DNA of 64,000 bases from an uncultured Bacteroidota bacterium (GTDB lineage Bacteria; Bacteroidota; Bacteroidia; Flavobacteriales; Schleiferiaceae). The notes beneath the pieces were generated by a model, which made no database searches, was not told where the DNA came from, and saw only the letters and a list, made by a program, of their open reading frames with translations. Every line of letters begins with the position of its first letter. The stretch's first letter is position 1. Made by a program: the position numbers and the translations under genes. Shown here piece after piece: positions 40,556 through 64,000 of this stretch. The stretch spans positions 10,005 through 74,004 of the forward strand of contig CAJXNI010000013.1 in NCBI GenBank assembly GCA_913057235.1, in the 5' to 3' direction.

Positions 40556-41149
40556 TCATTCCTTTAGCATCTTCGCAAAAGAAGAGATCAATTCATTTTT
40601 GAAATCTTGGTAATAATATCGGTCTATTCTAAAAAACTTTAGAATATTATCTTGTGCTTCTTTCCACTGCTCCGTAGGTAATATGTAGTAAAAACGGTCT
40701 ACATCTTCGGTGAAGAGTATGGGCTTCTTCACAGCGCTATAGCGTAAAACGCGGAGGTTGTCTTTGCGTACATCAAAACGCATTATTGGAAGTTTAAAGT
40801 TTTCAAAACCTAAATTGGTAATTGCCAAATCAGAAATGATGGGTAAGCTTTTATACTGACACTTACTGAAAAGCCAACTTCCAATTGTAAAAGAAATTGA
40901 GTTTATTTCATAGAGACGGTACAAACCTACCTTGGCACCATTCTCATAAATAACAAAATAGTATTCCTCACCTTTGGCCTCCCTCTTTTTGTAAGCTCTG
41001 ATCCACTCTTTTTGGTCTTCAAGGGACGCAGAAGTAAAATTGAGGTGTTTTTTAAGCTCCGGATCATTCCGGAGTTTAATGATGAACTCTGCGTCATTAA
41101 CCTCTACCAACTTTATTTCATGCCTTTGAATTCCGTTAGTCATTCCCAT
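40556..41149 (-). CDS. GNAT-family N-acetyltransferase (RimJ/RimL-like)
   Basis: IKLVEVNDAEFIIKLRNDPELKKHLNF...QKEWI...YFVIYENGAKVGLYRLYEI has the layout of Acetyltransf_3-type GNATs that are common in glycan loci. Confidence 0.6.
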   Translation of the reverse strand: MGMTNGIQRHEIKLVEVNDAEFIIKLRNDPELKKHLNFTSASLEDQKEWIRAYKKREAKGEEYYFVIYENGAKVGLYRLYEINSISFTIGSWLFSKCQYKSLPIISDLAITNLGFENFKLPIMRFDVRKDNLRVLRYSAVKKPILFTEDVDRFYYILPTEQWKEAQDNILKFFRIDRYYYQDFKNELISSFAKMLKE

Positions 41150-41152
41150 AGA

Positions 41153-41935
41153 TTAATCAAAGAAAGGCTGCCATACCGTTCCCCTTCTCTCTAAAGTAAG
41201 TTTTTTAATAGGAAGCATATTTTTTTCAATGACGACTATAAATGGATAATTATGAACCGAATTAATAATTCTTTGCAAATCAGATGCCGAGGCAATGGCC
41301 TTTTGATTGAGCGCACTAACTAACCCCGAGCAAAATATAGAAAAAGGATGATGAATGCCATGGATATCCTCACATAAATAAACCCCCCCATGGGTCACGT
41401 GAGGCAACAATTCTTCCAAAGAAATCCTTTGCTGATTAGGCCTGTGTCCTCCATCATCAATAATAATATCGAAGGGGCCTTCTTCTTCGATAACTTTTCT
41501 TAAGAAAGCTCTATCGGATTGACTGCCAATGTAAACTTTAGTGTAATTATTCTCGTAGGCCCTGCAATCAGGCTCAATATCTATACCTACAATTCTGCAA
41601 TGGTCACCAAAATAATCACGCCACATTTTTAAACTACCGCCACTATAAATACCAATCTCAAGAATTTTCAGTTTGCGTCCTCTAAATTTATGAAAGTGCC
41701 TATGGTAGATATCAAAGTAGTGGCGCCATTTCCAAATACCATTACCCTTGGTATTATTATTAAAAGAAACACTTAGTGGGTTTGATTCTTCTGCTTCTAC
41801 TAAATCACTTTTATGAGATGTCTTATTTAAGGTTTTACGTTGAGCATAGTCGTAGCCTTTAAAATAACTAGACCTATTGACTAAAATATTTCTAGTAAAC
41901 TTTAGGGCCTGTTTAATTCGAGTCTTTGTTTTCAT
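41153..41935 (-). CDS. Class I SAM-dependent methyltransferase (candidate sugar O-methyltransferase)
   Basis: KILEIGIYSGGSLKMWRDYFGDHCRIVGIDIEP (motif I plus the acidic post-I residue) and FDIIIDDGGHRPNQQ. Confidence 0.7.
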   Translation of the reverse strand: MKTKTRIKQALKFTRNILVNRSSYFKGYDYAQRKTLNKTSHKSDLVEAEESNPLSVSFNNNTKGNGIWKWRHYFDIYHRHFHKFRGRKLKILEIGIYSGGSLKMWRDYFGDHCRIVGIDIEPDCRAYENNYTKVYIGSQSDRAFLRKVIEEEGPFDIIIDDGGHRPNQQRISLEELLPHVTHGGVYLCEDIHGIHHPFSIFCSGLVSALNQKAIASASDLQRIINSVHNYPFIVVIEKNMLPIKKLTLERRGTVWQPFFD

Positions 41936-42086: not shown

Positions 42087-42506
42087 TCAACGCCTTTTAT
42101 ATCTGTAAAACTGCTCTAGATTTCTTATATAATCCTTCTCAAAAAACTTCTCAGAAGCCAAAACCAAGCAATTACTTCCGGCAGAAAAATTGAAAACCTC
42201 CTTCCAAATACCTGATGGAACAAGCAGCCCTTTATCTGGCTGGTTAAGATGGATTGTACGAATGTCCGAACCATCATCTAAAATAACTTCGAAGCTACCA
42301 CTAACGGCAATAATAACTTGATGCAACTCAATATGAGCGTGCCCACCTCTTCGTCCTCCAGCAGGAACATCAAAGAGGTAAAAACAGCGTTTAACCGGAA
42401 AAGGGAACAACTTATTATTTTCATAAAAAGTAATATTTCCTTCAGCTGTGGTGATTTTTGGTAGCTCTATTACACTACAGTTGTGAATTGTTCTTTCCCT
42501 CATCAT
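42087..42506 (-). CDS. fdtA: WxcM/FdtA-like cupin: dTDP-4-keto-6-deoxyhexose 3,4-ketoisomerase
   Basis: PFPVKRCFYLFDVPAGGRRGGHAHIELHQVIIAVSGSFEVILDDG...LVLASEKFFEKDYIRNLEQF matches the FdtA pattern (RG-HAH, paired His, C-terminal DYIR). Length is 139 aa. Confidence 0.75.
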   Translation of the reverse strand: MMRERTIHNCSVIELPKITTAEGNITFYENNKLFPFPVKRCFYLFDVPAGGRRGGHAHIELHQVIIAVSGSFEVILDDGSDIRTIHLNQPDKGLLVPSGIWKEVFNFSAGSNCLVLASEKFFEKDYIRNLEQFYRYKRR

Positions 42507-43473
42507 GAATTATTAAGGCTGTTCTAGTTTTCAATGTACGCCTAAGGTTTGACTTCAATAAAATATATCCGGCCACCGTGATAAAAGCCACAATCAAGTA
42601 TGTATAACCAGGCATCTTAAATAAGTAGCCCGTTATAATCAGTGCTGAAATTAATAATTGGGTACCTGCATAGATGAAAGCCACTTGTAGATGTTTCCAG
42701 CCAAACTCATTACACAGTTGCTGATACAAATGAGATCGGTGCGCTTCAAAAATATTTTCACCTTGCAGTAAACGCTCCACAATGGTAATAACAGCATCAA
42801 CCCCGTAAACTAAGAAAAATAGGATAAAGAACCAATACTCTGATGTGGCTAATAAATTAATCATCAAAAAGGCGAGTAGAAATGCCAAGGAAACGCTGCC
42901 AATGTCACCGGCAAATAGCAGGGCCTTTCGCCTTACGTTATAAAAAGAAAACACTGCAGTGGTAATTACAGTAGTCACAATAATAGAGTCTTCAATGAAA
43001 AAGACATATTTATTTGTAAGCCATAGAGATCCTAAGACACTCAGCGCATACAATGAGGTGATTCCGTTAATACCATCCATAAAATTATAGGCATTGAGCC
43101 AGCCTACGCTTAATATAGACAAAGCAAGCAGAAATATCCATGAAGAACCAAGGCTATTTACATCCAGAAACATTAATGCCACCGCGGCAAACTGAGTAAG
43201 AAGTCTTAATTTAAAACTCAGCCCTCTAAGATCATCGGTGAAACTTACTAAGGCTACTAATAAAATCCCGCTTAGAAAAAACGGGTATTGATAATCATTT
43301 AGAACAAACCAAACTATGGCTAGGATTGGAAATACAATTCCCCCGCCTCTTACAGTGGGTTTGGTATGGGAAGATCGCTTATTTGGCTGATCTAATATTC
43401 CGAGTCTTAATGCGAGCCTGCGGTACACAAAAAGGGTGACAAAGCTAATTATGGCAACACTCAAATAATTCAT
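42475..43473 (-). CDS. Polyprenyl-phosphate hexosamine-1-phosphate transferase (MraY/WecA family; initiating transferase)
   Basis: DQPNKRSSHTKPTVRGGGIVF and NAYNFMDGINGIT motifs, with about 10 TM helices. I prefer the ATG at 43473 (MNYLSVAII...), which makes an ATGA overlap with the upstream stop. The track start (43512) adds 13 unlikely residues. Confidence 0.8.
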   Translation of the reverse strand: MNYLSVAIISFVTLFVYRRLALRLGILDQPNKRSSHTKPTVRGGGIVFPILAIVWFVLNDYQYPFFLSGILLVALVSFTDDLRGLSFKLRLLTQFAAVALMFLDVNSLGSSWIFLLALSILSVGWLNAYNFMDGINGITSLYALSVLGSLWLTNKYVFFIEDSIIVTTVITTAVFSFYNVRRKALLFAGDIGSVSLAFLLAFLMINLLATSEYWFFILFFLVYGVDAVITIVERLLQGENIFEAHRSHLYQQLCNEFGWKHLQVAFIYAGTQLLISALIITGYLFKMPGYTYLIVAFITVAGYILLKSNLRRTLKTRTALIIHDEGKNNSQL

Positions 43474-44354
43474 GAAATATGGATGGCCTTTACCGCATTT
43501 GAAGGTTCCCAATTTAGCTTTTTTGTGGCTTTCTCACTGCTAAAGGTGAGGTCTGAGGACATCTTTTTTATTGTACTACTGTTTACGGGCACAAATTTTA
43601 GAATATCTCCTAAACTACCCAACACTTTGGCTATTTTAAAACTAATATTTTTAGGAGGTTTAGACTTGATTAGTTGACAGATATGATCCTCAATTTCCTT
43701 GAATGATGGATCTCTTTGATCCGTTAAGTTGAAAATTCCTTCCTTGCCAAGGCTACTTTTTAAGAATTCTGCCACATCATAAGCTGAAACAATGCTCCTC
43801 TTCGCACGCCCGTTATCGATACTTAAATATTTTCCTGTTCTAAGGCCATCAATCATCTTTTTTAAATTACCGGGTGGGTTGGCACCAGATATTAGTGGCA
43901 ATCTCACTATTAAGAGCGGCACTGCATTGGTTTTCGCCCATTCTTGAAGATACGCTTCAGCTTGTATCTTGCTGAGCGCATAAGGGCTTTCTCCTAATAG
44001 GGGAGCCGACTCATCGGTTTGAAGAGGTACATACTCTCCGTAAACTGCCACGGTACTAATAAATATGAAGCCTTTTAGCGTTTGCAGATTTAAGCCCTTG
44101 GTAAGATTTACAGTACCCGTAAGATTTACCTTGAAAAAAGCATCAATCTCCTCCTGGCTTTTAGGAACAGTATGTGCTTTACCCGCTGCATGAATAACGT
44201 ACTCTATATCTGCTGGGAGTTGAGGCACAGCCGCAGCCAAGTCGCATGGAATATCCGCCCCTGAGCGAGCTAAACCTAGTACTTCTTGCCCTGTAAATGC
44301 ATCTTTCAAGATACCTCCTAAGAAACCACTGGTACCGGTTATAAGTGTTTTCAC
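43470..44354 (-). CDS. NAD-dependent epimerase/dehydratase (extended SDR)
   Basis: N-terminal TLITGTSGFLGGIL Rossmann motif and a YALSK catalytic YxxxK. Confidence 0.75.
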   Translation of the reverse strand: MKTLITGTSGFLGGILKDAFTGQEVLGLARSGADIPCDLAAAVPQLPADIEYVIHAAGKAHTVPKSQEEIDAFFKVNLTGTVNLTKGLNLQTLKGFIFISTVAVYGEYVPLQTDESAPLLGESPYALSKIQAEAYLQEWAKTNAVPLLIVRLPLISGANPPGNLKKMIDGLRTGKYLSIDNGRAKRSIVSAYDVAEFLKSSLGKEGIFNLTDQRDPSFKEIEDHICQLIKSKPPKNISFKIAKVLGSLGDILKFVPVNSSTIKKMSSDLTFSSEKATKKLNWEPSNAVKAIHIS

Positions 44355-44355
44355 T

Positions 44356-45486
44356 TTATAGATTTAAGGCTTCAACAATACTTTTAAAAACTTGCTTCTG
44401 CTCAAATTTTTGATCAAATAAAGCTCTACTTTCCTTAGCCATAGCCTGCTTGGCCTCATCGCTAAGCTGATTGTAATTTAACAAAGCTTCTTTCAAAGCT
44501 TTTGCTGATTTTGGTGCAACTAAAAAACCATTTACACCATCAACGCAAGTTTCTCGGCAGCCTTTGTGATCTGTGGTAATAATGGGTTTTCGCATGGCCA
44601 AAGACTCGGTTAAGGACCGGGGTACGCCCTCTGGATAGTAGCTGGGCAATACCACCGCCTCCGCAATGGAAACTATGTAACGCACATCTGACTGGTACCC
44701 CAAAAGATGGATGGCAGCATTTGGCTCAACCAATTGCTGTAACTCCCTTTCCAGACCCGCATCATCATACCACCCAGCAATTACCAAATCAAAATCCAAG
44801 CGTGTTTCTTTGGCTGCCTGAAGGTATCCCTCAACCAACTCTTTCACCCCTTTCTCACGAACAATTCTGCTGCATAAAAGCAGGTAGGGCCTTTGCGGAA
44901 GCTTCAGCCTTTCACGGTCTTTCTGATCATCAAAGGTGAAGTTTTCAAAGCGCGACTGGTCTACCCCGCTGCCATAAGTTAGAACTAACTTAGGCTTGGG
45001 TAAGTAAGGCTTTAGCAAAGCCAAATCATCTTTATTCTGAATGATTACATAATCGGCTCGGTTAAGAACTTTAGTGTAAACTCTGAAAATTTGGCGAATT
45101 AAGAAATTACGGTCCTGCTTATCTAAAAACCCAAGGCCGGCAATAGTTCCTGCCGCTTTAACGCCAGGTACCGCTTTGGCCGCCATAATGCCAATTAAAT
45201 TGGGGAAAAACTTAAGGGTGTACACCAAATCAAAACCACCTGCTTTAATCTGTTTTTTAAGCTGACGATAAAAAGTGGCGAAATAAAAAACTGCCAAGGC
45301 ACTTCTCTGGTACTTGTAAAAAGTTACCGGATGCCCCTGTTTTTCAACCTCAGGCTGGTATTTATCTTTAGGCACCATGGCGTGCACTTCAACCTCGCGT
45401 TCCTTTAAAAAACTTAAAAACTTGCTTCGGTACGCAATGTAATCTTCGCCAAAATGGGCTACCAGTAATAGTTTCCTCCTACTCAA
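44356..45486 (-). CDS. Glycosyltransferase, GT-B fold (GT4-like)
   Basis: C-terminal half has PSYYPEGVPRSLTESLAMRKPIITTD (an EX7E-type motif). Confidence 0.75.
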   Translation of the reverse strand: MSRRKLLLVAHFGEDYIAYRSKFLSFLKEREVEVHAMVPKDKYQPEVEKQGHPVTFYKYQRSALAVFYFATFYRQLKKQIKAGGFDLVYTLKFFPNLIGIMAAKAVPGVKAAGTIAGLGFLDKQDRNFLIRQIFRVYTKVLNRADYVIIQNKDDLALLKPYLPKPKLVLTYGSGVDQSRFENFTFDDQKDRERLKLPQRPYLLLCSRIVREKGVKELVEGYLQAAKETRLDFDLVIAGWYDDAGLERELQQLVEPNAAIHLLGYQSDVRYIVSIAEAVVLPSYYPEGVPRSLTESLAMRKPIITTDHKGCRETCVDGVNGFLVAPKSAKALKEALLNYNQLSDEAKQAMAKESRALFDQKFEQKQVFKSIVEALNL

Positions 45487-46619
45487 ATTACTAGGTTTTT
45501 ATAAACCTCAACGGTTTGTTCCGCGCAAGCTTTCCAGGTAAAGTCTTGGGCCCTTTGCAAACCTTTGGCTACTAGCTCCTTTCTTACAATCTCATTTTCC
45601 AGCACATGAAGCATCGTTTCTGCCAGGGCTTGCTCATTATAGGGGTCAACCAAAGCTGCTGCTCCCCCGGCTATTTCTGGTAAGCACGACAGGTTGGAAG
45701 TTACTACCGGGCAACCGCTGGCCATGGCCTCTAAAATGGTTAAGCCAAAGCCTTCAAATAAAGAAGGATACACAAAAAGCTCTGCTTGGCGATACAGCGC
45801 GCGGAGTTGCTCATCGCTCACATAGCCCATAAAATGCACCCTATCTTGTAATTGGTACTTGGCCACTAGATCTTTTACCTCAGCGTCATCCCAACCGCTG
45901 CCGCCCACGGTAACCAAATGGTGATTGGTTTTATTCTTGATTAAATTTAACGCTTGAACCACTCTGGCCAGGTTCTTACGCGGGCTTATAGCACCTGCCG
46001 CCAAGATAAAGGGCGCTTTTGGCATACTCAAAGAGTTTAATGCACTAAAATTAGGCTCCTCAAAAAAATGCGATGAAACCCCTTCTAAAATTACCCGCAC
46101 CTTAGCTGAAATGTCTTTTTGATAGGTTTTGTGTACATACTCTGTGAGAGCGTTAGCGGTAGTTTGGCTTACACAAATAAAAATGCGTGCCTGTTTTACC
46201 GCACGGTCTAAGCTTTTCCGCAAAATCCAGCTGGGTTTATCCGTGAAAAACTGCGGATGGGTGAGCGGCCCAATGTCATGAATAGTAATTAAAAACGGTT
46301 TTTGAGTAGCCACCGCATAGCCTAAAGACTGGGAGTGCACAAGGTCTACCGGTGATTTTAGCCCCCACTCTAAAGGTGGAAAGTTAAATTGGCTCCATAG
46401 CAGAGGGGTTATTTTTCGCCCCCAAGGCAAGATTTTTAGGCCTGTTTTGGCCTGCAGTTGCGCTAGGTCTTCTGGACTGCGCTCACTCCAGGTAGCAACA
46501 GGAATGAGCCTAGGAGTATTAGGTACCTCTTGAACAGCTGAAAAAAGATTGTGGGTAAAACGGGCAATACCGTGCCCCTGCGCCTGCGCAAACTGATTCG
46601 CAAAAAAGGCTATGTTCAC
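45483..46619 (-). CDS. Glycosyltransferase family 4
   Basis: YPSLFEGFGLTILEAMASGCPVVTSN. 4-nt overlaps at both ends. Confidence 0.85.
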   Translation of the reverse strand: MNIAFFANQFAQAQGHGIARFTHNLFSAVQEVPNTPRLIPVATWSERSPEDLAQLQAKTGLKILPWGRKITPLLWSQFNFPPLEWGLKSPVDLVHSQSLGYAVATQKPFLITIHDIGPLTHPQFFTDKPSWILRKSLDRAVKQARIFICVSQTTANALTEYVHKTYQKDISAKVRVILEGVSSHFFEEPNFSALNSLSMPKAPFILAAGAISPRKNLARVVQALNLIKNKTNHHLVTVGGSGWDDAEVKDLVAKYQLQDRVHFMGYVSDEQLRALYRQAELFVYPSLFEGFGLTILEAMASGCPVVTSNLSCLPEIAGGAAALVDPYNEQALAETMLHVLENEIVRKELVAKGLQRAQDFTWKACAEQTVEVYKNLVI

Positions 46620-47776
46620 AATGCATCCAATTTTTGAAAAGCCTCTTCGGCTCTAAGTTTACAGCTTCGCCAAGAGTGCTTTTGCGCAAAGGCCAGCATA
46701 GCGGATTTGTGCGCTTCATAATTCTCAAAAACACTTTTTACACCTTCCTTAGTTTCAGCCTCATTGCGTACCTCTAAAATAGGCGGTTGCAAAGTGTCAA
46801 ACTCTTCATGCGGAGTGCACAAAACCGGCAGGCCTGCAGCGGCATACTCATACAACTTCAATGGGTGTTGGCCCTTGTAAATTTCTTGTCTACTACGATC
46901 ATAGGTCATAATACCTAACTGTGCATGACGTAGATAAGCGGGCACCTCGGCAGCTTTGATGGGTCCCAGGAAATGAGTGTTGGAGTGTTTTTCCACAAAC
47001 TCAGGAAGCCAATCACAGGGCGGGCCAATCAGCACTACAGAACCACCTCTTTCTTGCATAGCTTGGCTTAAAGCCGATAGCATCGACTGGTCTAGCTTGC
47101 GGGTTAGACCAATCCACATGGCAACTGGTCCTTTTATATTTTCTAGAGCTGTTGGTTTTGCAACCGTGCCTTCATACTGATCTAAGTGCACGCCCTGACC
47201 CAAGTTGGTAATTTTCTCAGCCGGTACTTGAAATTTTTCTTGCAAATAATTCTGCAAGGCCTGGCCAATCACAAAAAGATGATCGGCTTTTTGATAATCA
47301 GTTTTTTCTAGGTACTCAATACCGCTTCCGCGATAAGCAGAATACATGTCTACCACGTGAAAAAAGAGCTTAGCTTTGGGGTATATTCGCTTTAAAGCAC
47401 TGCTGCCCGGGATGGTGGTCCAAATAATCTGAGGGGCTCCATGACCACCCGCACTTACCAATTTTTTAATGCTAGGCATAGCGGTCAGGTAACTGTTGGC
47501 AGCAGTAAGCTGTGCCAAAGTCTTACCTTTATTATCCATATGCGGTATAGCAGATAAGGCTCCGGTTACCCAAATATTTCCTTCAAAACGAGAACCTAAT
47601 TTATAGGTATGGTAATAGCCTTTACGCAAGGCCAAATGGGCCAAATTGCTGTTGGCCTGCAAATAGGTTACGGGGTAGCCCGCCTCGCTGAAAAGCTGGG
47701 CATAGGTTTTAGTGCTGCACTGCAATTCACTCTGCCAGGGGGTGGGCCTATGAAAAAGAATATGGGGCTTACTCAT
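46616..47776 (-). CDS. Glycosyltransferase, GT-B fold (TuaH-like)
   Basis: The C-terminal PLKLYEYAAAGLPVLCTP motif. I prefer the Met at 47776 (MSKPHILFH...), since the track start at 47863 would overlap the upstream gene by 80 nt. Confidence 0.65.
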   Translation of the reverse strand: MSKPHILFHRPTPWQSELQCSTKTYAQLFSEAGYPVTYLQANSNLAHLALRKGYYHTYKLGSRFEGNIWVTGALSAIPHMDNKGKTLAQLTAANSYLTAMPSIKKLVSAGGHGAPQIIWTTIPGSSALKRIYPKAKLFFHVVDMYSAYRGSGIEYLEKTDYQKADHLFVIGQALQNYLQEKFQVPAEKITNLGQGVHLDQYEGTVAKPTALENIKGPVAMWIGLTRKLDQSMLSALSQAMQERGGSVVLIGPPCDWLPEFVEKHSNTHFLGPIKAAEVPAYLRHAQLGIMTYDRSRQEIYKGQHPLKLYEYAAAGLPVLCTPHEEFDTLQPPILEVRNEAETKEGVKSVFENYEAHKSAMLAFAQKHSWRSCKLRAEEAFQKLDAL

Positions 47777-47783
47777 CAAAGGC

Positions 47784-52829: not shown

Positions 52830-52843
52830 TTGACAAAATAAGG

Positions 52844-53932: not shown

Positions 53933-53955
53933 GGAGTTTTTAACTAATATTTTGC

Positions 53956-56021: not shown

Positions 56022-56025
56022 GTGA

Positions 56026-56631
56026 CTAAGCCCGTTTAATTTTATTTCTGATGAGCCTGCCTAAGCGCACTACCGATGAGGTACTTTTTGCTTGATTCAT
56101 GTGTGGAAAGTCAATCTCAGGAATTTCAAGTCCTAAGAAATCGCATAGCTCTTGCCAACCGTCTTCATCTTCCCAATTCACAATTAATAATTGATCTGGC
56201 TTATCCTTAAATAACTCGGTAACCTCTACAATATGGTTCCGGTAAAAATTCAAATACACTTCTTCATCGTCCCATGGGTTGGGAGAACCAAAAAACTGTT
56301 GACGTAAATATTCTGAGTTTTTGCGGGTATTTCTGGAAGTATGTTTTTGCAAGCTATTAAGCCATACCCGCTCATTTGCGCGTAAAGTGAGAACAAACTT
56401 AGCTTGCGGGTACTGCTCTAGTAAGTATTTGTAAATCACTGGCCAGGGCCAGTCTTCAAAACAGTCGTACTGGTCTATTTCTGCCTTTAAATCGCTGTAA
56501 TTCCCTCTGGCAATTTGGTTGATAAGTTGCAGATTGTAAGGGGCCTTTTTATAGCCCAAAATTTCAAAACAGCGGCCTAATGTTGATGTGCCTGTTTTGG
56601 GAAGACCTACTCCAAAAATTTTGTTAGCCAT
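56026..56631 (-). CDS. Sulfotransferase (short, K-T-G-T-S-T P-loop type)
   Basis: FGVGLPKTGTSTLGRCF at the N-terminus and a later LTLRANERVWLNS block. Length is 201 aa. Confidence 0.7.
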   Translation of the reverse strand: MANKIFGVGLPKTGTSTLGRCFEILGYKKAPYNLQLINQIARGNYSDLKAEIDQYDCFEDWPWPVIYKYLLEQYPQAKFVLTLRANERVWLNSLQKHTSRNTRKNSEYLRQQFFGSPNPWDDEEVYLNFYRNHIVEVTELFKDKPDQLLIVNWEDEDGWQELCDFLGLEIPEIDFPHMNQAKSTSSVVRLGRLIRNKIKRA

Positions 56632-56637
56632 ACATAA

Positions 56638-57678
56638 TTAATTTGTCTGCAATTTGGCAGGGTGGTTGGTTTCAAGTTTAGTAAACACTAGTAGCTGCTT
56701 TGCTAATATAGCGGTATCGTAATGGTTTTCTGCCCGAAGCCGAGCTTTTTCACCCATTTCCTTTACCAGTTGCTTTTGCTGTAATAGCAGCATCAATTTG
56801 TCTCGCCAATCAGCTAATGTATCCGCTATAAAGCCGGTCTTGCCACTTTGAATAATAGCGCTATTGGCGCTATTGGCCGAGGCTATTGTTGGCAAACCGC
56901 TAGCCATGTACTCTAATGCTTTAAATCCGCATTTGTATTGATTGAATTCATTTCTTTGTAATGGATATACTCCAATATCAAATTCCTGGATGCCCTGGCG
57001 TATAGCAGAGGGATCTTCCCAATTAAGTTGATCCACCCATTCTATCTTTAGCCCGGGTACTGCTTTAAAAGCCTCGCTTAGTTCAGCATCGCCACATAGG
57101 CCAATAATTTTTAGTTTAAAACTCACCTGCTGGGCTAAGGCCATGACAACGGGCTTTAAAATTTCCAACAAATCCTGCTTATAATGAGGGCCGTTGCCAA
57201 TCCAACCAATTGTAAGTGGGGCGGCAAAATCTGTTTTAACCTTATAATTTCGCGTTCTTACCCCCGTAGGCCAGTAATGCACCAAAGGTTGAAACTGCCT
57301 CACGTATTCTACCAAAAATGGGCTGCCAGCTAATACGCCTGAAGCAGCTTGAGCACAGGCTTTAAAATATTTTAAGGTGGCTGGGTTGTTGTTTCTTGAA
57401 GGGGAATCATCAATATCTAAAAAAACCTGCTTGCCTAAAAGGCGCCCCCATTTGATTAATAGTAGGTGATACTTACCATAGCATTTTTGGAAAATCACTA
57501 CCTCTGAAAGCGCTATATGCCAGGCAAATGCCAGGAACTTTTTTAGGGCATGGCCGTGCATAAGCCTTACGCTCAAATAAGCCTGTAGCTCTTGGGCTAT
57601 CCAATAGGCTCTCACACGTGAACTGGCTTTGCTCTTATCGCCTAGGGTAATAAAAAGAAGACGGGAGGAGTTAGCCAT
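56638..57678 (-). CDS. Glycosyltransferase, GT-B fold (GT1/GT4-like)
   Basis: C-terminal GFKALEYMASGLPTIAS motif and a Rossmann-like N-half. Confidence 0.7.
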   Translation of the reverse strand: MANSSRLLFITLGDKSKASSRVRAYWIAQELQAYLSVRLMHGHALKKFLAFAWHIALSEVVIFQKCYGKYHLLLIKWGRLLGKQVFLDIDDSPSRNNNPATLKYFKACAQAASGVLAGSPFLVEYVRQFQPLVHYWPTGVRTRNYKVKTDFAAPLTIGWIGNGPHYKQDLLEILKPVVMALAQQVSFKLKIIGLCGDAELSEAFKAVPGLKIEWVDQLNWEDPSAIRQGIQEFDIGVYPLQRNEFNQYKCGFKALEYMASGLPTIASANSANSAIIQSGKTGFIADTLADWRDKLMLLLQQKQLVKEMGEKARLRAENHYDTAILAKQLLVFTKLETNHPAKLQTN

Positions 57679-58801
57679 TTTTTATTTTGCGTAGTTCACG
57701 TTTAATGCCCTGCAAACTATAACGCAGCAACATTTTACCGTTTGCCGGATGGAGCGGGCTAGCGCTAGTCCAGGTATCTTGAGCAAGGCGCTCAAACAGT
57801 TGAGACCACTCTTCGGCTCTCTTTTCAGGTGTGTAGAACTCTAAAACCGTTTGCCGGGCTTGTTCTCCCATTGCTCGTAATTGCTGAGGGGAAGCGCACA
57901 GTTCCTTAATTTTTTGCTCCCATTCATGGTCATCGGCAAAAGCCGAATTAAGCCCATCTCTAATAGCTTTTTTATGAGGATCTGTAGGGGTAGCCAAACT
58001 AGGCACTCCGCAAATACCTGCCTCTATAAATTTAAGCTCACTTTTTGCCTGGCAAAACATCTCTTGCTGCTCCAGTGGCACTAAATTTAAATCAATCTGT
58101 TCAAAGATTTTGGTATACTCAGCGTAAGGAATAAAATCACGGTGCAAGAACTGCCGCCCAAAGCGGTAAAACTTCTTACTAAACTTTAGCGGCCCCACTA
58201 AAAGCAATTGCAGTCTAGGGTTGTCTTTCAATGACTTTAGAAGCGCCTCCTCTACAATTTTAAAATCGCCATTATGAGTGCTGCTTCCGCAGAGGTAGGC
58301 CATGGTAATGAAGTCTTTGTTCAGACTTTGGCGCTGCTTGTGTATAGCATTACCATTGCGTATAAAATCTGTACTTAAGCCATTTAAAATGGTGCTTACC
58401 TTAGAAAGGTGCTTTCTGGCTCTTTGGGCCAGAAAATCTGTGGAAACTATTACATGGTCACAAGCTTGCATAGCCTTTAAAGCCGATGCGTAATCTTTAT
58501 AGTTTTTCTTTCCAATCCTTACCAGGTAATCTGACCCCGCAGGTTCAAATAAGAGGTCATCCGTATCGTACAAGACGGGGCTACCTTGAGCTTTGGCGGC
58601 ATTTATGAAAGCTTCTGTATACTCATTATAAAAAGCACGGTGCAAAACCACAATTTCTCCTTTCCTGGGGATGGACTGGTGGATTCTTTTTACCCTGACA
58701 TCATAACCTTTAGATCTCAAATACTGGGCTGGCTGCAAACAGCGTAACTGGGTAGAACCATTATGGCGGATGGTTAAGTTAGAGTAAAAACCAACTTTCA
58801 T
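57671..58801 (-). CDS. Glycosyltransferase, GT-B fold
   Basis: C-terminal SELKFIEAGICGVPSLATP. It has a similar architecture to the preceding gene and overlaps it by 8 nt. Confidence 0.65.
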   Translation of the reverse strand: MKVGFYSNLTIRHNGSTQLRCLQPAQYLRSKGYDVRVKRIHQSIPRKGEIVVLHRAFYNEYTEAFINAAKAQGSPVLYDTDDLLFEPAGSDYLVRIGKKNYKDYASALKAMQACDHVIVSTDFLAQRARKHLSKVSTILNGLSTDFIRNGNAIHKQRQSLNKDFITMAYLCGSSTHNGDFKIVEEALLKSLKDNPRLQLLLVGPLKFSKKFYRFGRQFLHRDFIPYAEYTKIFEQIDLNLVPLEQQEMFCQAKSELKFIEAGICGVPSLATPTDPHKKAIRDGLNSAFADDHEWEQKIKELCASPQQLRAMGEQARQTVLEFYTPEKRAEEWSQLFERLAQDTWTSASPLHPANGKMLLRYSLQGIKRELRKIKNG

Positions 58802-58809
58802 GAAGAAGC

Positions 58810-59907
58810 TTAGCTAGAGCCTAACTTTAAATTTAAAAAATACTTAATACGCGTACTTAGGGGGAGGTATTTTAAATAAGGCTTGGTGGTAGCCACTAGC
58901 GGCACTCCGTTTTGGGCCGAGCGCACCAGCAAACGCGCAAACTTTTGCCGTTGTTCTTTAGAACCTTTAGCAGTTAAAAGCTCAATTAGTTTTTCATGAA
59001 TACGGTTGAGTTCACTTTTAAAATTCTCGGGACTAACCGCCTGCTTTTGCTTATTTAGGGTGGTTCCTAACTTGAGGTAGCGCTTAATTTCATCTCGCGT
59101 AACCATTTCTAACTGTTCCTTATTAAGATTAGGCTTTAGCCGATCAAGCACCTTCAAGTGATCTTGAAGATATATTATTCTCTTGGGTCCGCTTAACAAA
59201 GTTTGTGAAAGAGAGGTAGACAAGACACGGTAGGCAGTCAATACCTCCGGTACATAGGCTACTTTGGCTTTTGCCGATATATTTAACCACGCAAAAAAGT
59301 CTTCCTGCAGAATATCCTCCGGATAACGGCCTACATACTGCATTAGTGCTGAAAAGCGAATGAGCACCGTAGGAGAGTGTACCACCACCCCTTTATTAGC
59401 ATGACCCGTTAAAATGGCCTTGAAAGTATTTTCTGGAAATTGATAATTCTCTTCAAAAAAACGAGGTTCCATAATTTCGCCATGCTCATTTACGGTGCAA
59501 TAATTGCCACAGACAAGCGCTACCTCTTCATCTGCTTCCAAAACCGCCATGTGCTTCTTTAACTTTTCAGGGTACTGAAAATCATCACCCGGAATGGGCT
59601 GCAAATACTTACCACTAACCAGGGGTAAAGCTTCATTTACCGTTGCGCACAAGCCCATGTTCTGTTGGTGGGCTAAAAAAATGCAGTTCACCTCATTTCG
59701 ATCAATCCAGTTTTGGATTACCTGCTGCGAATTGTCGGTTGAGCAATCATCTGTAATGATCAATTGCAAATTGGGGTAATCCAGCGCCAGCCCACTGTCA
59801 AGTGCTTTTTCTACATATTTTGCGTGGTTATAGCAAACGCATAACAAAGTGACTAGTGGCTTCTGTGGGTCTTGAAATCGTACCAAGCCTCTTACCTCCT
59901 GACTCAT
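58810..59907 (-). CDS. Glycosyltransferase family 2
   Basis: [31 protein letters not shown] and a PGDDF motif. Confidence 0.85.
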
Positions 59908-61010
59908 CCTTTAAAAAATTCTTTGATGCTATTTGACACTTGGCTTACTTGATCTTGGGTCATACCTACCCAAAGCGGGAGGCTAACTACTGTTTGAGCC
60001 AGCTCTGTAGCTATTTTCATTGAGCTATACTTTAAACTGCCCTTAGGATAGGCCTTCTGCTCATGAATAGGAACCGGGTAATGAATTAGGCTGCCAATAC
60101 CTGATTGTGTTAAATGATCTTGCAGGGCTTGCCTTCTTTCCGTTCTAATCACATAAAGGTGATAGCTATGAGTGGCCTTTGGATGTAGGGTTGGCAAAAT
60201 CAGGTCACCCACTCCGGCCAATTGTTGGTTATACCAACTGGCAATGGTCCTTCGTTCTTCAGTCCATTGCTCTAAATGCTTTAATTTAACTCTTAAAAAA
60301 GCCGCTTGCATCTCATCTAGGCGCATGTTGGCACCTAAAACATCGTTGTAATACTTTTTGGCCGAACCATAGTTGCGGTAAATTTCGGCCTTTTGAGCCA
60401 GTTCATCATTGTTTGTGGTAATCGCCCCTCCGTCTCCTAAAGCCCCTAAGTTTTTTCCAGGGTAAAAACTTACACCATTGATATCTCCAAAACTTCCGGT
60501 GTAAACCGAGTTATAGGCTGCCAAATGAGCCTGAGCATTATCTTCTACCACAAACAAGTTATGCCTCTTGGCGATGCGCATGATCGCATCCATTTCACAT
60601 GCCTGACCATAGAGATGCACGGGCATAATGGCTTTGGTGGAAGGGGTAATTGCCTCCTCAATTAGCGCAGGGTTTAGATTGTACGTTACTATAGATGGTT
60701 CTACCAAAACCGGCATAGCGCCCACGGCCGATACTGCCAGGGCCGTAGCTATGTAGGTGTTGGAAGGGATAATCACCTCATCACCGGGCCCAATTTCCAA
60801 CACTCTTAAGGCGATGATCAGCGAGTCTAGCCCATTACTCACTCCCACGGTATGGTTAACCTTAGTGAGTTGGGAGTATTCAGTTTCAAAGCCCTTCAAC
60901 TGTCCTCCCATAACAAACCAATTGCTGTTGTAGACTTTCTCAAAGGCAGCTTGCATATCGGCTTGCACCGACTTATGCATAGGTGCCATGTCTAAAAAAG
61001 GAATGTTCAT
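59904..61010 (-). CDS. DegT/DnrJ/EryC1/StrS-family PLP-dependent sugar aminotransferase (FdtB-like candidate)
   Basis: [18 protein letters not shown] and [19 protein letters not shown] (PLP Lys). Length is 368 aa. Confidence 0.88.
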
Positions 61011-61013
61011 AGG

Positions 61014-62813
61014 TTATAGTTCCTGGAGTTCAACCATTTTTCTAAATCGCGGAGTGCGCCTCATAAGCTCTTCAAAAGTGCCTACATCTTCTATAAGACC
61101 TTTATTGAGAACAACAATTCGGTTTGCATTCTTAACCGTAGAAAGGCGATGAGCTACAATAACTACTGTGTATCTACCTTTTAAACTGTCTATATTCTCT
61201 TGTATGATTCGTTCTGTTTGAGAGTCAAGAGCAGAGGTGGCCTCATCCAGCACCAATAGTTGCACCTTCTTGTAAAGCTCCCGAGCTATTGAAATTCTTT
61301 GCTTTTGACCGCCACTTAAGTTAGCGCCACTGTTCTCAAGTAGGTGCTTCTCCTTAGCCGGTAAGGAATTTACAAATTCTTCTATCGAAGCTTCTTGCAA
61401 GGCAGCACGGAAACGAGCCATATTTTCAGGGGTAGGATCTTGCCAGAGTGTGATATTATTGAATACTGTATCATTAAAGATGACAGGCTCTTGTGTAATG
61501 TAGCCGATTCTCCTTTGAAAATCCTTCAAGTTGGTTTGTCCTAAATCCTTTGATTCTAATAATACTTTGCCCTGGCTAGGCTTTAGCAAACCACAAATAA
61601 TATTTATTAGCGTTGACTTTCCGCTTCCACTCTCGCCAACAATGGCAATAGTTTCATTCTGGTTAATGGTTAAGTTCAAGTTTTGAAGAATCCAGTCTTT
61701 TGCTTTAAAGGAAAAGCTAACATTGTCTAATTTTATGAATGGTATGTGCTCTGGCACCTTTCCCTCCTTCAGCTTCTCCTGGCCCTTCTTAAGATCGGTT
61801 AACAACTCCGTTGTATTGCGCAAAGACCCCGAAACTCCCAAATAGGTATTCCATTGATTTTGCACCATCATGAAGGCGCCTAATGCGCGATAAAAGAATA
61901 AGAGGGAAATTAAAATAGGCGCTAAACTTGCTTCAAAAACTCTAATTTGCAGGATTATTACGACAGCCATCACTGCAATAATTAAAGGTTCTTTAGAAGC
62001 AAACAAAGTAGCTCTAAGTTTTCCAATATGCACTTGCAATCGTTCAAGAAAAAAAACGCTTTCCTTGATTTGTTTATAAAAAAGCTCGGATGACCCTGAA
62101 GCTTTTAAATACTTGAAGTTGTTTATGAACTGGATAATTCTATTCTGAAATAAATTACCTTGTGTAGACACTTCATAGGAAGCACTCTTGGTTCTGGAAA
62201 AAATAGACCGATAAGCCAAATTGCTTAAAGCGCCACCCGCCAAGGCCATTGATGCAAACCGGAAGTCTATGCTTATGGCAAATCCTGCATAAACGAGGAC
62301 AAGAATCATTTGCTCAAAAGATTTATAATAGGATTGAACAGCCGTAGAAACCCTACCAATCTCACCCGTTAGGGTATTCTGGATACGACCTACATCCAGG
62401 GATATAAATTTTTTGTAAGAGAAATCTTTTAATGCCTTTGAAAGATTCAAGCGGAGTTGTGCTACAAAGAATTGCTGAACTTTGACGAAATAGAAGTGCG
62501 CAAAAAACTTAAAAACCCCCTTTAGAAAAAAGAAAAACACTAATAAGAACAGGATTGTTTCTATGGTAAAAAAAATACCTATCTCATTGAACCAACTTAT
62601 AAAATGACCATAGTCTCCAGCTTCGGAAGGGGTAAGCTCATTGTCACCACCAGCTAATTTCAAAAGCGGTAAAAACATAGCTAAACCTAAACCATCTAAT
62701 AAACCAAAAGTGAAACTTATCAAAAAGGCGATAAACAATCTATGCCTCAGAGTTGAGTAGAAAAAAGCAAAACCCGAAAAATACTGCTTAATAAGTTTTT
62801 TGATGGTCTCCAT
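61014..62813 (-). CDS. Fused TMD-NBD ABC exporter (MsbA/PglK-like)
   Basis: Six-helix N-terminal half, Walker A GESGSGKST, signature LSGGQKQR and Walker B LLVLDEATSALD. Confidence 0.88.
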   Translation of the reverse strand: METIKKLIKQYFSGFAFFYSTLRHRLFIAFLISFTFGLLDGLGLAMFLPLLKLAGGDNELTPSEAGDYGHFISWFNEIGIFFTIETILFLLVFFFFLKGVFKFFAHFYFVKVQQFFVAQLRLNLSKALKDFSYKKFISLDVGRIQNTLTGEIGRVSTAVQSYYKSFEQMILVLVYAGFAISIDFRFASMALAGGALSNLAYRSIFSRTKSASYEVSTQGNLFQNRIIQFINNFKYLKASGSSELFYKQIKESVFFLERLQVHIGKLRATLFASKEPLIIAVMAVVIILQIRVFEASLAPILISLLFFYRALGAFMMVQNQWNTYLGVSGSLRNTTELLTDLKKGQEKLKEGKVPEHIPFIKLDNVSFSFKAKDWILQNLNLTINQNETIAIVGESGSGKSTLINIICGLLKPSQGKVLLESKDLGQTNLKDFQRRIGYITQEPVIFNDTVFNNITLWQDPTPENMARFRAALQEASIEEFVNSLPAKEKHLLENSGANLSGGQKQRISIARELYKKVQLLVLDEATSALDSQTERIIQENIDSLKGRYTVVIVAHRLSTVKNANRIVVLNKGLIEDVGTFEELMRRTPRFRKMVELQEL

Positions 62814-62909
62814 AGAATTATTGAGTACTTAACGGCTCCGCCTCCTCACTCACAAATTAATGTAGGAGCTATGGCTATTATCTGGCTCTCCCCACTCCTT
62901 AAGAAATGG

Positions 62910-64000
62910 CTAGCTTTTTTTAAACCCCCTGGCTAGCCTTGAAAAAAAAGAAGCTTTTTCCTGATCGTCATCGGTATAACCATAACCATAGCCGTAACCA
63001 TAGCCGTAACCATAACCATATCCATAACCATATCCGTAGCCATATCCGTAGCCGTAGCCGTAGCCCTTTTGTACCGTATAATCATTGATTACAACAGCCA
63101 AGTGGTCTATTGCCCTATTCTCATAGCGGTCTTTTAAGAATTTGAGCAACTGCTTATCCGTGTACCCTTGACGCACCACATAAAAAGTATAGTCAGCTGC
63201 CTTCATAATTTCGAAGGAATCAGCTACAAGGCCCACCGGAGGGGTATCCAAAATGATATAATCATATTGCTTCCTCAGCTCAGCCAGCATTTCCTTAAAT
63301 GAATCCCCAATAAGCATCTCTGACGGATTGGGAGGAATAGGCCCTGCGGATAAAATATCTAGATTATCAAATTCTGTACTTTGAATAGCCTCTTTAACTG
63401 GTAACATGCCTGCAAGTACATTTGAGACTCCTTTGTCATTAGTTAGATTAAAGTCATTATAAATTTTAGGCTTTCTTAAATCTAAACCAACCAAGATGGT
63501 TTTGCTGCCACCCATGGCCAATATAGAGGCCATGTTTATGCTATTAAAGGTTTTACCCTCTCCGCCAATAGAAGAGGTAAACAATAATACTTGTGATTTT
63601 TTCTGGTGCTTGCCTGCTAAAAAAGATAAATTAGCTCTAAAGGCTCTAAATGACTCAGAAATGCTTGATTTAGGATGCTTAATTGCTACGAGGTTTGTTG
63701 GTTTTAAACTATGGCCAATCATGGCCACTACCGGCACAGTAAGCATTTTTTCAATGTCTTCTTTGGTTCGAATTTTACCGTCAAAGTAATCTCTTACAAC
63801 TACTATGGCTATGGGTAAAGCCAGTCCAATTAAAAACGCCATGGCAAAAACCACCATAGGATTAGGACTGATCGGGAAAGGACTCACCAAGGCCTCATCA
63901 ACAATGCGGTTATCGGGGCGATTGGCCGCTAAAGCAATTCCTGCCTCAGCCTTCTTTTGCATGAGAAACAAGTAAAGATTTTCATTTAGCTGATACCTCC
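62910..64000 (-). CDS. Polysaccharide co-polymerase / BY-kinase (Wzc-like tyrosine autokinase); N-terminus lies beyond the window
   Basis: Walker A TSSIGGEGKTF, Walker A' VGLDLRKP, Walker B IILDTPPVG and a C-terminal Tyr cluster. The track start (TTG at 63971) is not real: the frame stays open to nt 64000 (...RYQLNENLYLFLMQKKAEAG...), which is typical of the Wzz-like periplasmic part. Confidence 0.85.
   Translation of the reverse strand, partial: RYQLNENLYLFLMQKKAEAGIALAANRPDNRIVDEALVSPFPISPNPMVVFAMAFLIGLALPIAIVVVRDYFDGKIRTKEDIEKMLTVPVVAMIGHSLKPTNLVAIKHPKSSISESFRAFRANLSFLAGKHQKKSQVLLFTSSIGGEGKTFNSINMASILAMGGSKTILVGLDLRKPKIYNDFNLTNDKGVSNVLAGMLPVKEAIQSTEFDNLDILSAGPIPPNPSEMLIGDSFKEMLAELRKQYDYIILDTPPVGLVADSFEIMKAADYTFYVVRQGYTDKQLLKFLKDRYENRAIDHLAVVINDYTVQKGYGYGYGYGYGYGYGYGYGYGYGYGYGYGYTDDDQEKASFFSRLARGFKKS
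62976..63065 (-). repeat. Coding (GGN-TAY)x15 tract, giving a perfect (Gly-Tyr)15 tail in the BY-kinase
   Basis: Minus-strand read: ggc tac x3, gga tat, ggc tac, gga tat, ggt tat, gga tat, ggt tat, ggt tac, ggc tat, ggt tac, ggc tat, ggt tat x2. The tract is followed by TDDDQEK. Confidence 0.95.

Follow-up and report, generated by a model that had tools for sequence, protein, structure and literature searches.

A Flavobacteriales polysaccharide locus with interleaved sulfotransferase genes that probably makes a sulfated glycan

According to a 2024 review, sulfated polysaccharides have been reported from six bacterial genera (PMC11625862), and a metagenomic survey that relied on PF13469 as its sole model scored all Bacteroidetes genomes as having no sulfotransferases (PMC9723792). 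In Synechocystis sp. PCC 6803, the xss cluster encodes 2 sulfotransferases and 8 glycosyltransferases and makes synechan, which has 8 sugars and 2 sulfates (PMC8205485). Here we analyze a polysaccharide locus from an uncultured member of the Bacteroidota. It was found in a 64,000-nucleotide (nt) stretch of contig CAJXNI010000013.1; we will call this whole stretch the window. The locus encodes ten glycosyltransferases, a WecA-like initiating transferase, three certain sulfotransferases (ST_A, ST_C, and ST_D), and a fourth, probable sulfotransferase (ST_B). We propose that it probably makes a sulfated glycan, namely a Wzy-dependent capsule or exopolysaccharide whose repeat unit is sulfated in the cytoplasm.

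Like the xss cluster, this locus has many glycosyltransferases (10 and the initiator, versus 8 in xss), sulfotransferases of different subfamilies (3-4 versus 2), a Wzy polymerase, which is putative here, and a Wzc-type polysaccharide co-polymerase (PCP). For synechan, the repeat unit is built and sulfated on a lipid carrier, flipped, polymerized, and exported, and we propose the same scheme here from the genes. Where xss has the flippase Wzx, our locus instead has an ATP-binding cassette (ABC) half-transporter that resembles MsbA, PglK, and HepA. Also, xss is a cyanobacterial, megaplasmid-borne cluster under the control of XssQ/R/S, and the gene for its outer-membrane export lies at another site. 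In contrast, our locus is chromosomal, lacks internal regulator genes, adjoins Wza and genes for making the sulfate donor 3'-phosphoadenosine 5'-phosphosulfate (PAPS), and is from the Bacteroidota. Pfam searches of 31 genes (those in the window and those just upstream of it) found no STAND regulator, response regulator, or histidine kinase, which is the XssQ/XssR/XssS set.

In Vibrio sp. KMM 8419, sulfotransferase genes together with cysNDC were called a hallmark of sulfated capsule clusters (PMC11641403). As seen in an overlapping contig (L009, below), cysC, cysD, and cysN also lie beside our cluster; the same backbone is present in relatives in which we found no sulfotransferases. Cobetia marina KMM 1449 is reported to have a sulfated capsule and genes for its biosynthesis (PMC11766843). 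The Vibrio and Cobetia clusters resemble ours in having sulfotransferase genes with a second or adjacent cysC/cysN/cysD set in or beside the capsule cluster; both organisms are Gammaproteobacteria, and their structures were solved by nuclear magnetic resonance. The Vibrio capsule is ABC-transporter-dependent and has a short glucose/rhamnose repeat, whereas our locus is predicted to be Wzy-dependent and to make a long repeat unit.

Two other systems share parts of this gene content. In Pontiella sulfatireligans F21, which is otherwise known as a degrader of sulfated glycans, about 8 glycosyltransferases of families GT2 and GT4 are encoded in one cluster with a sulfotransferase, a sugar aminotransferase, and a methyltransferase (PMC7356697). 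However, that putative sulfated glycosaminoglycan-like cluster has a single sulfotransferase and belongs to the Verrucomicrobiota (Kiritimatiellae); a dye assay detected sulfated exopolymer in this organism. Within the Bacteroidota, BT_0412-BT_0416 of Bacteroides thetaiotaomicron combine an anion importer and CysC/CysD/CysN with a nearby PAPS-dependent sulfotransferase (PMC9417993). But BT_0416 acts on cholesterol rather than on a glycan, and this module contains no glycosyltransferases or polymer export genes.

The concept of sulfotransferases inside Wzy-type clusters, with PAPS genes beside them, is therefore already known. The original prediction for this DNA presented sulfated bacterial glycans as rare, which was overstated: sulfotransferase-bearing polysaccharide clusters are described from Synechocystis, Vibrio, Cobetia, and Pontiella, and similar loci recur in metagenomes. 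In the full-text literature that we searched, which does not extend to most subscription journals, we found no description of a Bacteroidota polysaccharide locus with sulfotransferases. We tentatively suggest that, among the Bacteroidota, this may be the first pathway to a sulfated capsule or exopolysaccharide that has been defined genetically, with a widespread but unrecognized ST_B sulfotransferase family and with an MsbA/PglK-type flippase that takes the place of Wzx in flipping a lipid-linked repeat unit of high negative charge.

The locus is a single co-directional polysaccharide assembly locus. In a listing of the window's open reading frames (ORFs), 23 successive minus-strand ORFs run from 40556 to the window edge. 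Neighboring genes overlap by 4 nt at 43470/43473, 45483/45486, 46616/46619, 54801/54804, and 59904/59907, by 8 nt at 51741/51748 and 57671/57678, by 17 nt at 50351/50367, and by 32 nt at 42475/42506. (The overlap at 43470/43473 assumes that the WecA-like ORF begins at an internal ATG at 43473; the longest ORF extends to 43512. At the 47784/47863 junction, the start codon of GT_c is uncertain.) The other intergenic gaps are mostly 0-23 nt; only the gaps before FdtA (151 nt) and after Wzc (96 nt) are larger. At the 3' end of the locus, direct sequence inspection shows a bulged 13-bp hairpin followed by UUUUUUGUU. This terminator has a predicted folding energy of -16.6 kcal/mol (z = -4.64), and 0 of 200 shuffled sequences were equally stable. 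A consensus terminator scan reported nothing at 40.47 kb because of the one-base bulge. Thus, the ORF listing and the hairpin fold confirm the 23 consecutive genes, the terminator, and the overlaps that were originally predicted. The run of genes does reach the window edge, as stated there, but it does not stop: the reading frame of Wzc is still open at base 64000, so both this gene and the locus extend past the window. When genes from contig L009 are counted in, the whole co-directional block would have about 31 genes and a length of about 32 kb, and in window coordinates it would span 40556 to roughly 72.7 kb. G+C content is lowest at 50-56 kb (0.38-0.39, versus 0.44-0.51 in the flanks).

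By family score and motifs, ST_A, ST_C, and ST_D are clear PAPS-type sulfotransferases. Their scores exceed Pfam's gathering thresholds: 55.6 bits for ST_A with Sulfotransfer_3 (cut-off 27), 55.1 bits for ST_C with Sulfotransfer_1 (cut-off 22), and 124.3 bits for ST_D with Sulfotransfer_4 (cut-off 22.8). Of the four sulfotransferases that had been proposed for the locus, these profile searches thus place three in sulfotransferase families and leave ST_B (49561-50367) unplaced and only probable. All four of the differing P-loop strings that had been noticed are present in the translations: KRSGST in ST_A, KTGGT in ST_B, RGGSTW in ST_C, and KTGTST in ST_D. The downstream R-x-P...S blocks, which would bind the 3'-phosphate, are RNPLSVQYS in ST_A, RDPFSYYVS in ST_B, and RNPIDRAYS in ST_C, while ST_D has PKTGTST and a Sulfotransfer_4-type 3'-phosphate block that was aligned by the hidden Markov model (HMM). 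The three certain sulfotransferases belong to different Pfam families and have different closest solved structures; judging from their sequences, they are not recent duplicates, as had been argued from the P-loops. None of the four proteins has a hydrophobic segment (the maximum mean Kyte-Doolittle score over 19 residues is at most 0.81), so all four candidate sulfotransferases are predicted to be soluble and cytoplasmic. Their genes are interleaved with glycosyltransferase genes, and some of the start and stop codons overlap.

Among solved structures, the closest to ST_C is the bacterial sulfotransferase 3rnl (E = 1e-21). Next are heparan-sulfate 3-O-sulfotransferases (E = 5e-20) and the sulfotransferase domain of NDST (E = 2e-14). 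The animal enzymes (PDB 1t8t, 1nst) act on carbohydrates and share with ST_C the 5'-phosphosulfate loop and an R-N-P...R..S block. However, the loop of ST_C (RGGSTW) has Arg where those enzymes have Lys, and ST_C is a soluble bacterial protein rather than a type II membrane protein of the Golgi. ST_C has 143 homologs at E <= 1e-10, some of which are named as from cyanobacteria or Chromohalobacter. For ST_D, the sole match among genome-representative contigs was a 43% identical homolog in a metagenome-assembled genome of Qingshengfaniella.

One ST_C homolog (31% identity) is from Chromohalobacter israelensis (L008, JQNW01000004.1), where it lies beside GT2/GT1 fusion proteins of 1062 and 949 amino acids. 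That neighborhood also encodes a UDP-glucose dehydrogenase, a fragment of a Sulfotransfer_2 protein, and transposases. It is another candidate sulfated-polymer locus in a halophile.

ST_B is probably a divergent sulfotransferase, from a family without its own model that lies on the edge of Sulfotransfer_2. It has no match in Pfam or NCBIfam even at E = 10, and phmmer found no match among the sequences in the PDB. An exhaustive phmmer search of sequences clustered at 50% identity identified 682 cluster representatives at E <= 1e-3 and 382 at E <= 1e-10. Across an alignment of 117 family members, P56, Y60, S62, and N236 are invariant, and K14, T15, H36, R54, and S238 are at least 90% conserved. 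The family matches sulfotransferases in three signature blocks: K-T-G-x-T, which follows strand 1; R-[DN]-P-x(5)-S, which lies where a strand turns into a helix; and, C-terminally, E..L..D...N.S. Although ST_B itself has no Pfam match, 28 of the 117 aligned members individually match Sulfotransfer_2 (PF03567), with a best E value of 1.4e-6. When we compared the family with two true Sulfotransfer_2 proteins using hhalign, there were two local matches, one at the N-terminal loop (probability 77%, E = 2e-5) and one at the C-terminal E..L..D...N.S block (probability 55%, E = 1e-4). The hhalign comparison to ST_C was uninformative (probability 4%). The best hit of the family profile in the PDB was weak (E = 0.03), and was to an Arabidopsis sulfotransferase at its RNPxDxxVSLW block.

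The structure that AlphaFold2 predicts for ST_B from the 117-sequence alignment has a mean predicted local distance difference test (pLDDT) score of 94.3 and a predicted TM score (pTM) of 0.92. (With a 4-sequence alignment, the pLDDT was 39.5.) In the model, the strand at residues 7-10 leads into the loop KTGGT and a helix at 17-27, and the strand at 48-53 leads into RDP and a helix at 56-68 that carries S62. This strand-loop-helix placement is the arrangement of both cofactor-binding blocks in sulfotransferases. When the model was compared to the PDB with Foldseek, about 45 of the top 50 matches were PAPS sulfotransferases, including SULT1C3 and the heparan-sulfate 6-O- and 2-O-sulfotransferases. 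These similarities are weak: the best is to SULT1C3 (E = 0.04, probability 0.98), the TM scores are 0.36-0.46, and there were 0 matches at E <= 0.001.

Could 49561-50367 encode a P-loop-like protein with another function, so that the locus has three sulfotransferases? This would explain why the curated models, the PDB sequences, and Foldseek at E <= 0.001 give no match, and why the gene is wholly missing from a related species (L007, below). But it seems unlikely, given the Sulfotransfer_2 matches within the family, the three signature blocks, and the predominance of PAPS sulfotransferases among the Foldseek matches. Also, the gene is flanked by ST_A (with a 1-nt gap) and by Wzy (with a 17-nt overlap), and an ST_B homolog (P0002, 33% identity) is found among three sulfotransferases in another metagenomic locus (L028, positions 3625-10852), which has one Sulfotransfer_1 gene, two Sulfotransfer_2 genes, and glycosyltransferases. 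Another homolog, P0003, is in a cyanobacterial region without glycan genes. The ST_B family shows that surveys with one or two Pfam models overlook such families.

To read past the window edge, we searched metagenomes with the Wzc fragment. A contig from sample PR_CR_10_Liq_1 (L009) is 98.8% identical to window positions 62743-64000 over 1261 nt, with 12 mismatches and 2 gaps, and we used it as a stand-in for the adjoining region. Both gaps probably lie in a repeat within the wzc gene: Wzc ends in a pure (YG)15 tail, which is encoded by a 6-nt tandem repeat at 62976-63065 (minus strand). Another metagenome contig (L002) breaks at this repeat.

Upstream of wzc in L009, and on the same strand, are genes for Wza (Poly_export and SLBB domains), for CysN (NF003478, 600 bits), CysD (NF003587, 444 bits), and CysC (NF003013, 281 bits), each of which is past its NCBIfam cut-off, and for a DASS/SLC13-type anion transporter. 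A GFO/IDH/MocA oxidoreductase (WbpB-like) and a hexapeptide-repeat (LbH) acetyltransferase of the NeuD/PglB/VioB family are also encoded on this strand. A divergently transcribed gene lies upstream of these. The co-directional block thus includes a complete module for sulfate import and PAPS synthesis. It had been stated that the window has no PAPS-synthesis genes. Taken literally, this is correct, but only because of where the window ends: in L009, cysC, cysD, and cysN are found 1-4 kb upstream of wzc, past the position of the window's edge. So the PAPS pathway on which the prediction depended is present, with the DASS transporter and CysC, CysD, and CysN encoded immediately upstream.

The comparison across relatives that had been suggested shows that the locus is conserved, with variation. 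In a related species whose PriA is 77% identical (L007, a 409-kb contig from JGI 3300060338), a syntenic locus lies at the same distance from priA. The identities of its proteins range from 84% for Wzc to 57% for the WecA-like protein, with 67% for the ABC protein, 75% for ST_D, 66% for GT_g, 59% for ST_C, and 74% for ST_A. This locus has three sulfotransferases and lacks ST_B and GT_f, but the gene orders ST_D-GT_g-ST_C and ST_A-GT2_d are kept. Within the species, contig L002 is 99-100% identical throughout, while another strain (L003) is identical from the ABC gene to GT_g and then has a different central cassette (L003 8287-11632 versus window 50351-54804). In this cassette, ST_C is 63% identical, GT_e is 64% identical, Wzy is only 35% identical, and GT_f is missing. 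The variable center coincides with the low-G+C stretch at 50-56 kb. Such cassette swapping is the usual behavior of capsule and O-antigen loci under diversifying selection. The number of sulfotransferases is 3 or 4 among these close relatives. Homologs of ST_C and ST_B are also found in other glycosyltransferase-rich metagenomic loci with several sulfotransferases, so related multi-sulfotransferase glycan loci are not rare, only unstudied.

We assigned the other genes of the locus (Table 1) with Pfam and NCBIfam, and we counted the hydrophobic segments in each protein. Pfam identifies 10 glycosyltransferases besides the initiator, in agreement with the earlier estimate of about 10. The WecA-like protein has about 10 hydrophobic segments and matches the wecA model TIGR02380 (64.9 bits, which is under the cut-off). 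Wzc scores past the cut-off of TIGR01007; the full-length protein from L009 has 830 amino acids, with Wzz, GNVR, and kinase domains. Together with Wza, which is encoded in L009, it forms an export pair of the PCP-2a and outer-membrane polysaccharide export (OPX) types.

Table 1. Genes and terminator of the locus in the window
Feature	Coordinates	Strand	Evidence
Intrinsic terminator, hairpin and U-run, 3' end of locus	40462..40496	-	sequence and fold
GNAT N-acetyltransferase, likely amino-sugar N-acetylase	40556..41149	-	Acetyltransf_3 40.6 bits; weak PseH-like NCBIfam match
Class I S-adenosylmethionine (SAM) methyltransferase (Methyltransf_24)	41153..41935	-	Pfam 34.3 bits, cut-off 26.3
FdtA/WxcM-type dTDP-4-keto-6-deoxyhexose 3,4-ketoisomerase	42087..42506	-	FdtA 160 bits; 60% in L007
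WecA-like polyprenyl-phosphate N-acetylhexosamine (HexNAc)-1-phosphate transferase (initiating)	42475..43473	-	Glycos_transf_4 67.3 bits
NAD-dependent sugar epimerase/reductase	43470..44354	-	Epimerase 98.5 bits
Glycosyltransferase GT_a	44356..45486	-	Glycos_transf_1 100 bits
Glycosyltransferase GT_b	45483..46619	-	Glycos_transf_1 129.9 bits
Glycosyltransferase GT_c, divergent Glycos_transf_1 type	46616..47863	-	Glyco_trans_1_2 32.2, Glyco_trans_1_4 31.5 bits
GT2-family glycosyltransferase GT2_d	47784..48629	-	Glycos_transf_2 73.6 bits
Sulfotransferase ST_A (Sulfotransfer_3/_1)	48630..49559	-	55.6 and 36.6 bits, both past cut-off
Probable sulfotransferase ST_B, edge of Sulfotransfer_2	49561..50367	-	family-level and model evidence, without Pfam/NCBIfam model
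Wzy-like repeat-unit polymerase	50351..51748	-	Wzy_C 31.5 bits; 10-12 hydrophobic segments
Glycosyltransferase GT_e	51741..52829	-	Glycos_transf_1 106.9 bits
Glycosyltransferase GT_f	52844..53932	-	Glycos_transf_1 103.9 bits; not in L003, L007
Sulfotransferase ST_C (Sulfotransfer_1/_3), carbohydrate-type	53956..54804	-	55.1 and 50.7 bits
Glycosyltransferase GT_g	54801..56021	-	Glycos_transf_1 86.9 bits; overlaps ST_C by 4 nt
Sulfotransferase ST_D (Sulfotransfer_4)	56026..56631	-	124.3 bits
Glycosyltransferase GT_h	56638..57678	-	Glyco_trans_1_4 48.6 bits
Glycosyltransferase GT_i	57671..58801	-	Glyco_trans_1_2 56.6 bits
GT2-family glycosyltransferase GT2_j	58810..59907	-	Glycos_transf_2 73.3 bits
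DegT/FdtB-type pyridoxal-phosphate sugar aminotransferase	59904..61010	-	DegT_DnrJ_EryC1 381.6 bits
Fused permease-ATPase ABC half-transporter, HepA/MsbA/PglK-like; candidate flippase	61014..62813	-	ABC_tran 126.7 bits
Wzc tyrosine autokinase/chain-length co-polymerase, C-terminal 363 codons, (YG)15 tail	62910..64000	-	TIGR01007 153.5 bits

The ABC protein had been described as an exporter. An ABC protein is present, with about 6 hydrophobic segments, but it is a half-transporter of the MsbA/PglK/HepA type. We found no Wzx flippase (MOP family or Polysacc_synt) by Pfam among the 23 genes in the window and the 8 upstream genes in L009, which is a block that is bounded by the divergent gene and the terminator. 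Because the locus lacks Wzx, the ABC half-transporter is more likely a flippase for lipid-linked oligosaccharides than a polymer exporter. PglK is an established precedent for an ABC flippase of an undecaprenyl-pyrophosphate-linked oligosaccharide. We considered and rejected assembly that depends on an ABC transporter of the Wzm/Wzt or KpsMT type, because the ABC protein here is instead an MsbA-type half-transporter with fused domains, and because the locus also encodes a Wzy-like protein.

From these genes, we infer the following pathway. The WecA-like transferase would load HexNAc-1-phosphate onto undecaprenyl phosphate, and the 10 soluble glycosyltransferases would add further sugars, giving a long repeat unit with as many as about 11. 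FdtA, the DegT-type aminotransferase, and the GNAT acetyltransferase may supply one of these sugars, which would probably be a 3-acetamido-3,6-dideoxyhexose; RmlA and RmlB would be needed from elsewhere. (FdtA/FdtB/FdtC are the established route to 3-acetamido-3,6-dideoxyhexose.) A second acetamido sugar may come from the WbpB-like and LbH enzymes that are encoded upstream. The three certain and one probable soluble sulfotransferases would attach sulfate esters to different positions of the intermediate before it is flipped away from the cytoplasm; we place this step on the cytoplasmic face because PAPS is cytoplasmic and because no sulfotransferase has a membrane segment or a signal peptide. 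For PAPS, the cell would rely on the genes just upstream on the same strand, which encode the DASS sulfate importer, CysC, and CysDN. The methyltransferase may add a methyl group. The ABC half-transporter would then flip the anionic lipid-linked unit, Wzy would polymerize the units, and Wzc and Wza would export the polymer.

The product was originally described as a heavily sulfated, N-acetylated, and possibly O-methylated polymer. The genes for the sulfotransferases, for FdtA, DegT, and GNAT, and for the SAM methyltransferase fit with multiple sulfates, N-acetylation, and perhaps O-methylation, but "heavily" cannot be inferred from them: with 4 sulfotransferases and about 11 sugar transferases, a long repeat unit would be expected to carry about 4 sulfates at most. 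For synechan, which offers an experimental precedent for this design, the numbers of glycosyltransferase and sulfotransferase genes come close to the numbers of sugars and sulfates in each repeat (PMC8205485). By this rule, there would be up to 4 sulfates on about 11 sugars, so the polymer would be sulfated but not obviously heavily so. The further suggestion that the product mimics algal or animal glycans is unsupported.

Several observations weigh against a sulfated capsule or exopolysaccharide. First, two of the assembly proteins have borderline assignments: the Wzy_C score of the putative polymerase (31.5 bits) is just below Pfam's cut-off of 31.7, and the NCBIfam scores of the ABC protein (296 bits for HepA_fam, 259 for MsbA, and 239 for PglK) are all below the equivalog cut-offs. 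Second, the solved structures that ST_A and ST_D resemble are those of small-molecule or polyketide sulfotransferases. ST_A is closest to the polyketide sulfotransferase domains CurM/OLS (E = 3e-7), and ST_D is related to SgdX2 and to Schistosoma SULT-OR (E = 2e-14). Third, neither the curated models nor the solved structures gave a significant match for ST_B (E = 0.03 for the profile search of the PDB, E = 0.04 with Foldseek, and TM scores below 0.5). Fourth, ST_C is split into pieces of 236 and 52 amino acids in L007 and is possibly a pseudogene there, which implies that sulfation at that position is dispensable in that species.

The adjacent PAPS genes also need a cautious reading. Three more distant relatives (L010, L011, and L016) share the backbone of acetyltransferase-GFO-DASS-CysC-CysDN-Wza-Wzc, with 46-50% identity for Wzc, 83-84% for CysN, and 86% for CysD. 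Yet tblastn searches with the 5 sulfotransferases of the window found none in the glycan loci of these three relatives, and in L011, the only one that we analyzed with Pfam, no sulfotransferase was identified among 10 ORFs within 10 kb downstream of Wzc. Instead, the genes downstream of Wzc in L011 encode glycosyltransferases, a GDP-mannose dehydratase, and a Bac_transf initiator. The PAPS genes may be ordinary sulfur-assimilation genes that merely happen to be located there. Since the backbone is also present in relatives without any sulfotransferases that we could find, we do not take the neighboring cys genes to prove that the locus has a PAPS supply of its own. Rather, the cys-wza-wzc neighborhood is a lineage-wide syntenic backbone that receives different glycan cassettes, and it shows that the organism can make PAPS, not that the supply is dedicated. 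As a separate observation, cysD and cysN (L009 4144-7026) are co-oriented with the glycan locus but are inverted in L010, L011, and L016; this difference could be chance or could reflect recruitment into the operon.

The product might instead be another sulfated glycoconjugate, such as a lipopolysaccharide O-antigen or a glycolipid; some of the sulfotransferases would then have lipid-linked or lipid acceptors. We consider this improbable. Wzy_C, to which the match is borderline, is described in Pfam as "O-antigen ligase", and a WecA-like initiator is typical of O-antigen loci. Also, the homolog of ST_B in L028 is near genes for an acyl carrier protein, a ketosynthase, and a ketoreductase, which weighs against a glycan polymer as the acceptor: a lipid acceptor is possible for the ST_B family, and the L028 locus may be a sulfated glycolipid pathway. 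Rhizobial and mycobacterial sulfotransferases do act on glycolipids (PMC11625862). However, our locus has no lipid-synthesis genes among its Pfam assignments, and the same co-directional block is headed by Wzc and Wza, which are export machinery for capsules and exopolysaccharides.

It is very improbable that the sulfotransferases act on non-glycan acceptors (small metabolites, sterol-like lipids, or proteins) and lie here only because the locus is a recombination hot spot beside PAPS genes: the structural relatives of ST_A and ST_D, the sulfation of cholesterol by Bacteroides BT_0416, which adjoins a PAPS module (PMC9417993), and the mosaic, low-G+C central cassette would fit, but the four sulfotransferase genes are interleaved singly with glycosyltransferase genes (ST_C and GT_g overlap by 4 nt, and the gaps around ST_A and ST_B are 0-1 nt), the orders ST_D-GT_g-ST_C and ST_A-GT2_d are kept in a different species, and ST_C is closest to heparan-sulfate sulfotransferases.

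The window also encodes a fifth sulfotransferase, which the original prediction overlooked when it proposed the four in the locus. This gene (13414-14310, minus strand; Sulfotransfer_3, 60.9 bits) has a 4-nt overlap with an Lnb-like gene (14307-15503, minus strand) with Lnb_N and 5TMH_Lnb domains, which belong to a Bacteroidota family of lipoprotein N-acyltransferases. The pair is kept, with the same overlap, in a related species (PriA 77%; L033 3855-5914), and it was not found beside priA in Owenweeksia-like genomes. Other genes of the window lie outside the locus. Directly downstream of the terminator is a gene for a 1214-amino-acid, IcmF-like fusion of B12-binding, MeaB GTPase, and methylmalonyl-CoA-mutase-type domains (36746-40390, minus strand), and past it is a lone GT61-family glycosyltransferase gene (35657-36721, minus strand). 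Two proteins are cargo of the type IX secretion system: one of 1885 amino acids with MAM, fn3, PKD, and Por_Secre_tail domains (6202-11859, minus strand), and one with a GDSL lipase domain, a CHU_C-type Ig domain, and Por_Secre_tail (33047-35260, minus strand). Adjacent ORFs of 391 and 1480 amino acids (18418-24082, minus strand) have no Pfam match at E <= 0.001; the longer one is kept in a related species (L033, 1478 amino acids).

The host is a probably halophilic member of the Flavobacteriales that is similar to Owenweeksia or Cryomorphaceae, and the locus is chromosomal. The best named relatives of its PriA are from Cryomorphaceae/Owenweeksia (64% identity), Crocinitomicaceae (52%), and Flavobacteriaceae (about 50%). 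Type IX secretion C-terminal domains and the Lnb-like gene are also found in the window. The assignment to Bacteroidota thus holds. Identical proteins are present in JGI samples named PR_CR_10_Liq and in two ENA assemblies; from its name only, we take PR_CR_10_Liq to be a saltern sample with about 10% salt. Sulfated exopolysaccharides are well known in halophiles such as Halomonas and Haloferax, as cited in PMC5066984.

This locus, which combines 10 glycosyltransferases and 3-4 sulfotransferases with a neighboring PAPS module, is a concrete candidate for the production of a sulfated polymer in the Bacteroidota. Four different sulfotransferases with matched glycosyltransferases might also be used for engineering sulfated polysaccharides. 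Sulfated glycans are a major and slowly degraded pool of carbon in the sea and in salt ponds, and the Bacteroidota are treated as their consumers. If our reading of this locus is correct, then marine and hypersaline Flavobacteriales would be producers of sulfated glycans, and not only degraders.

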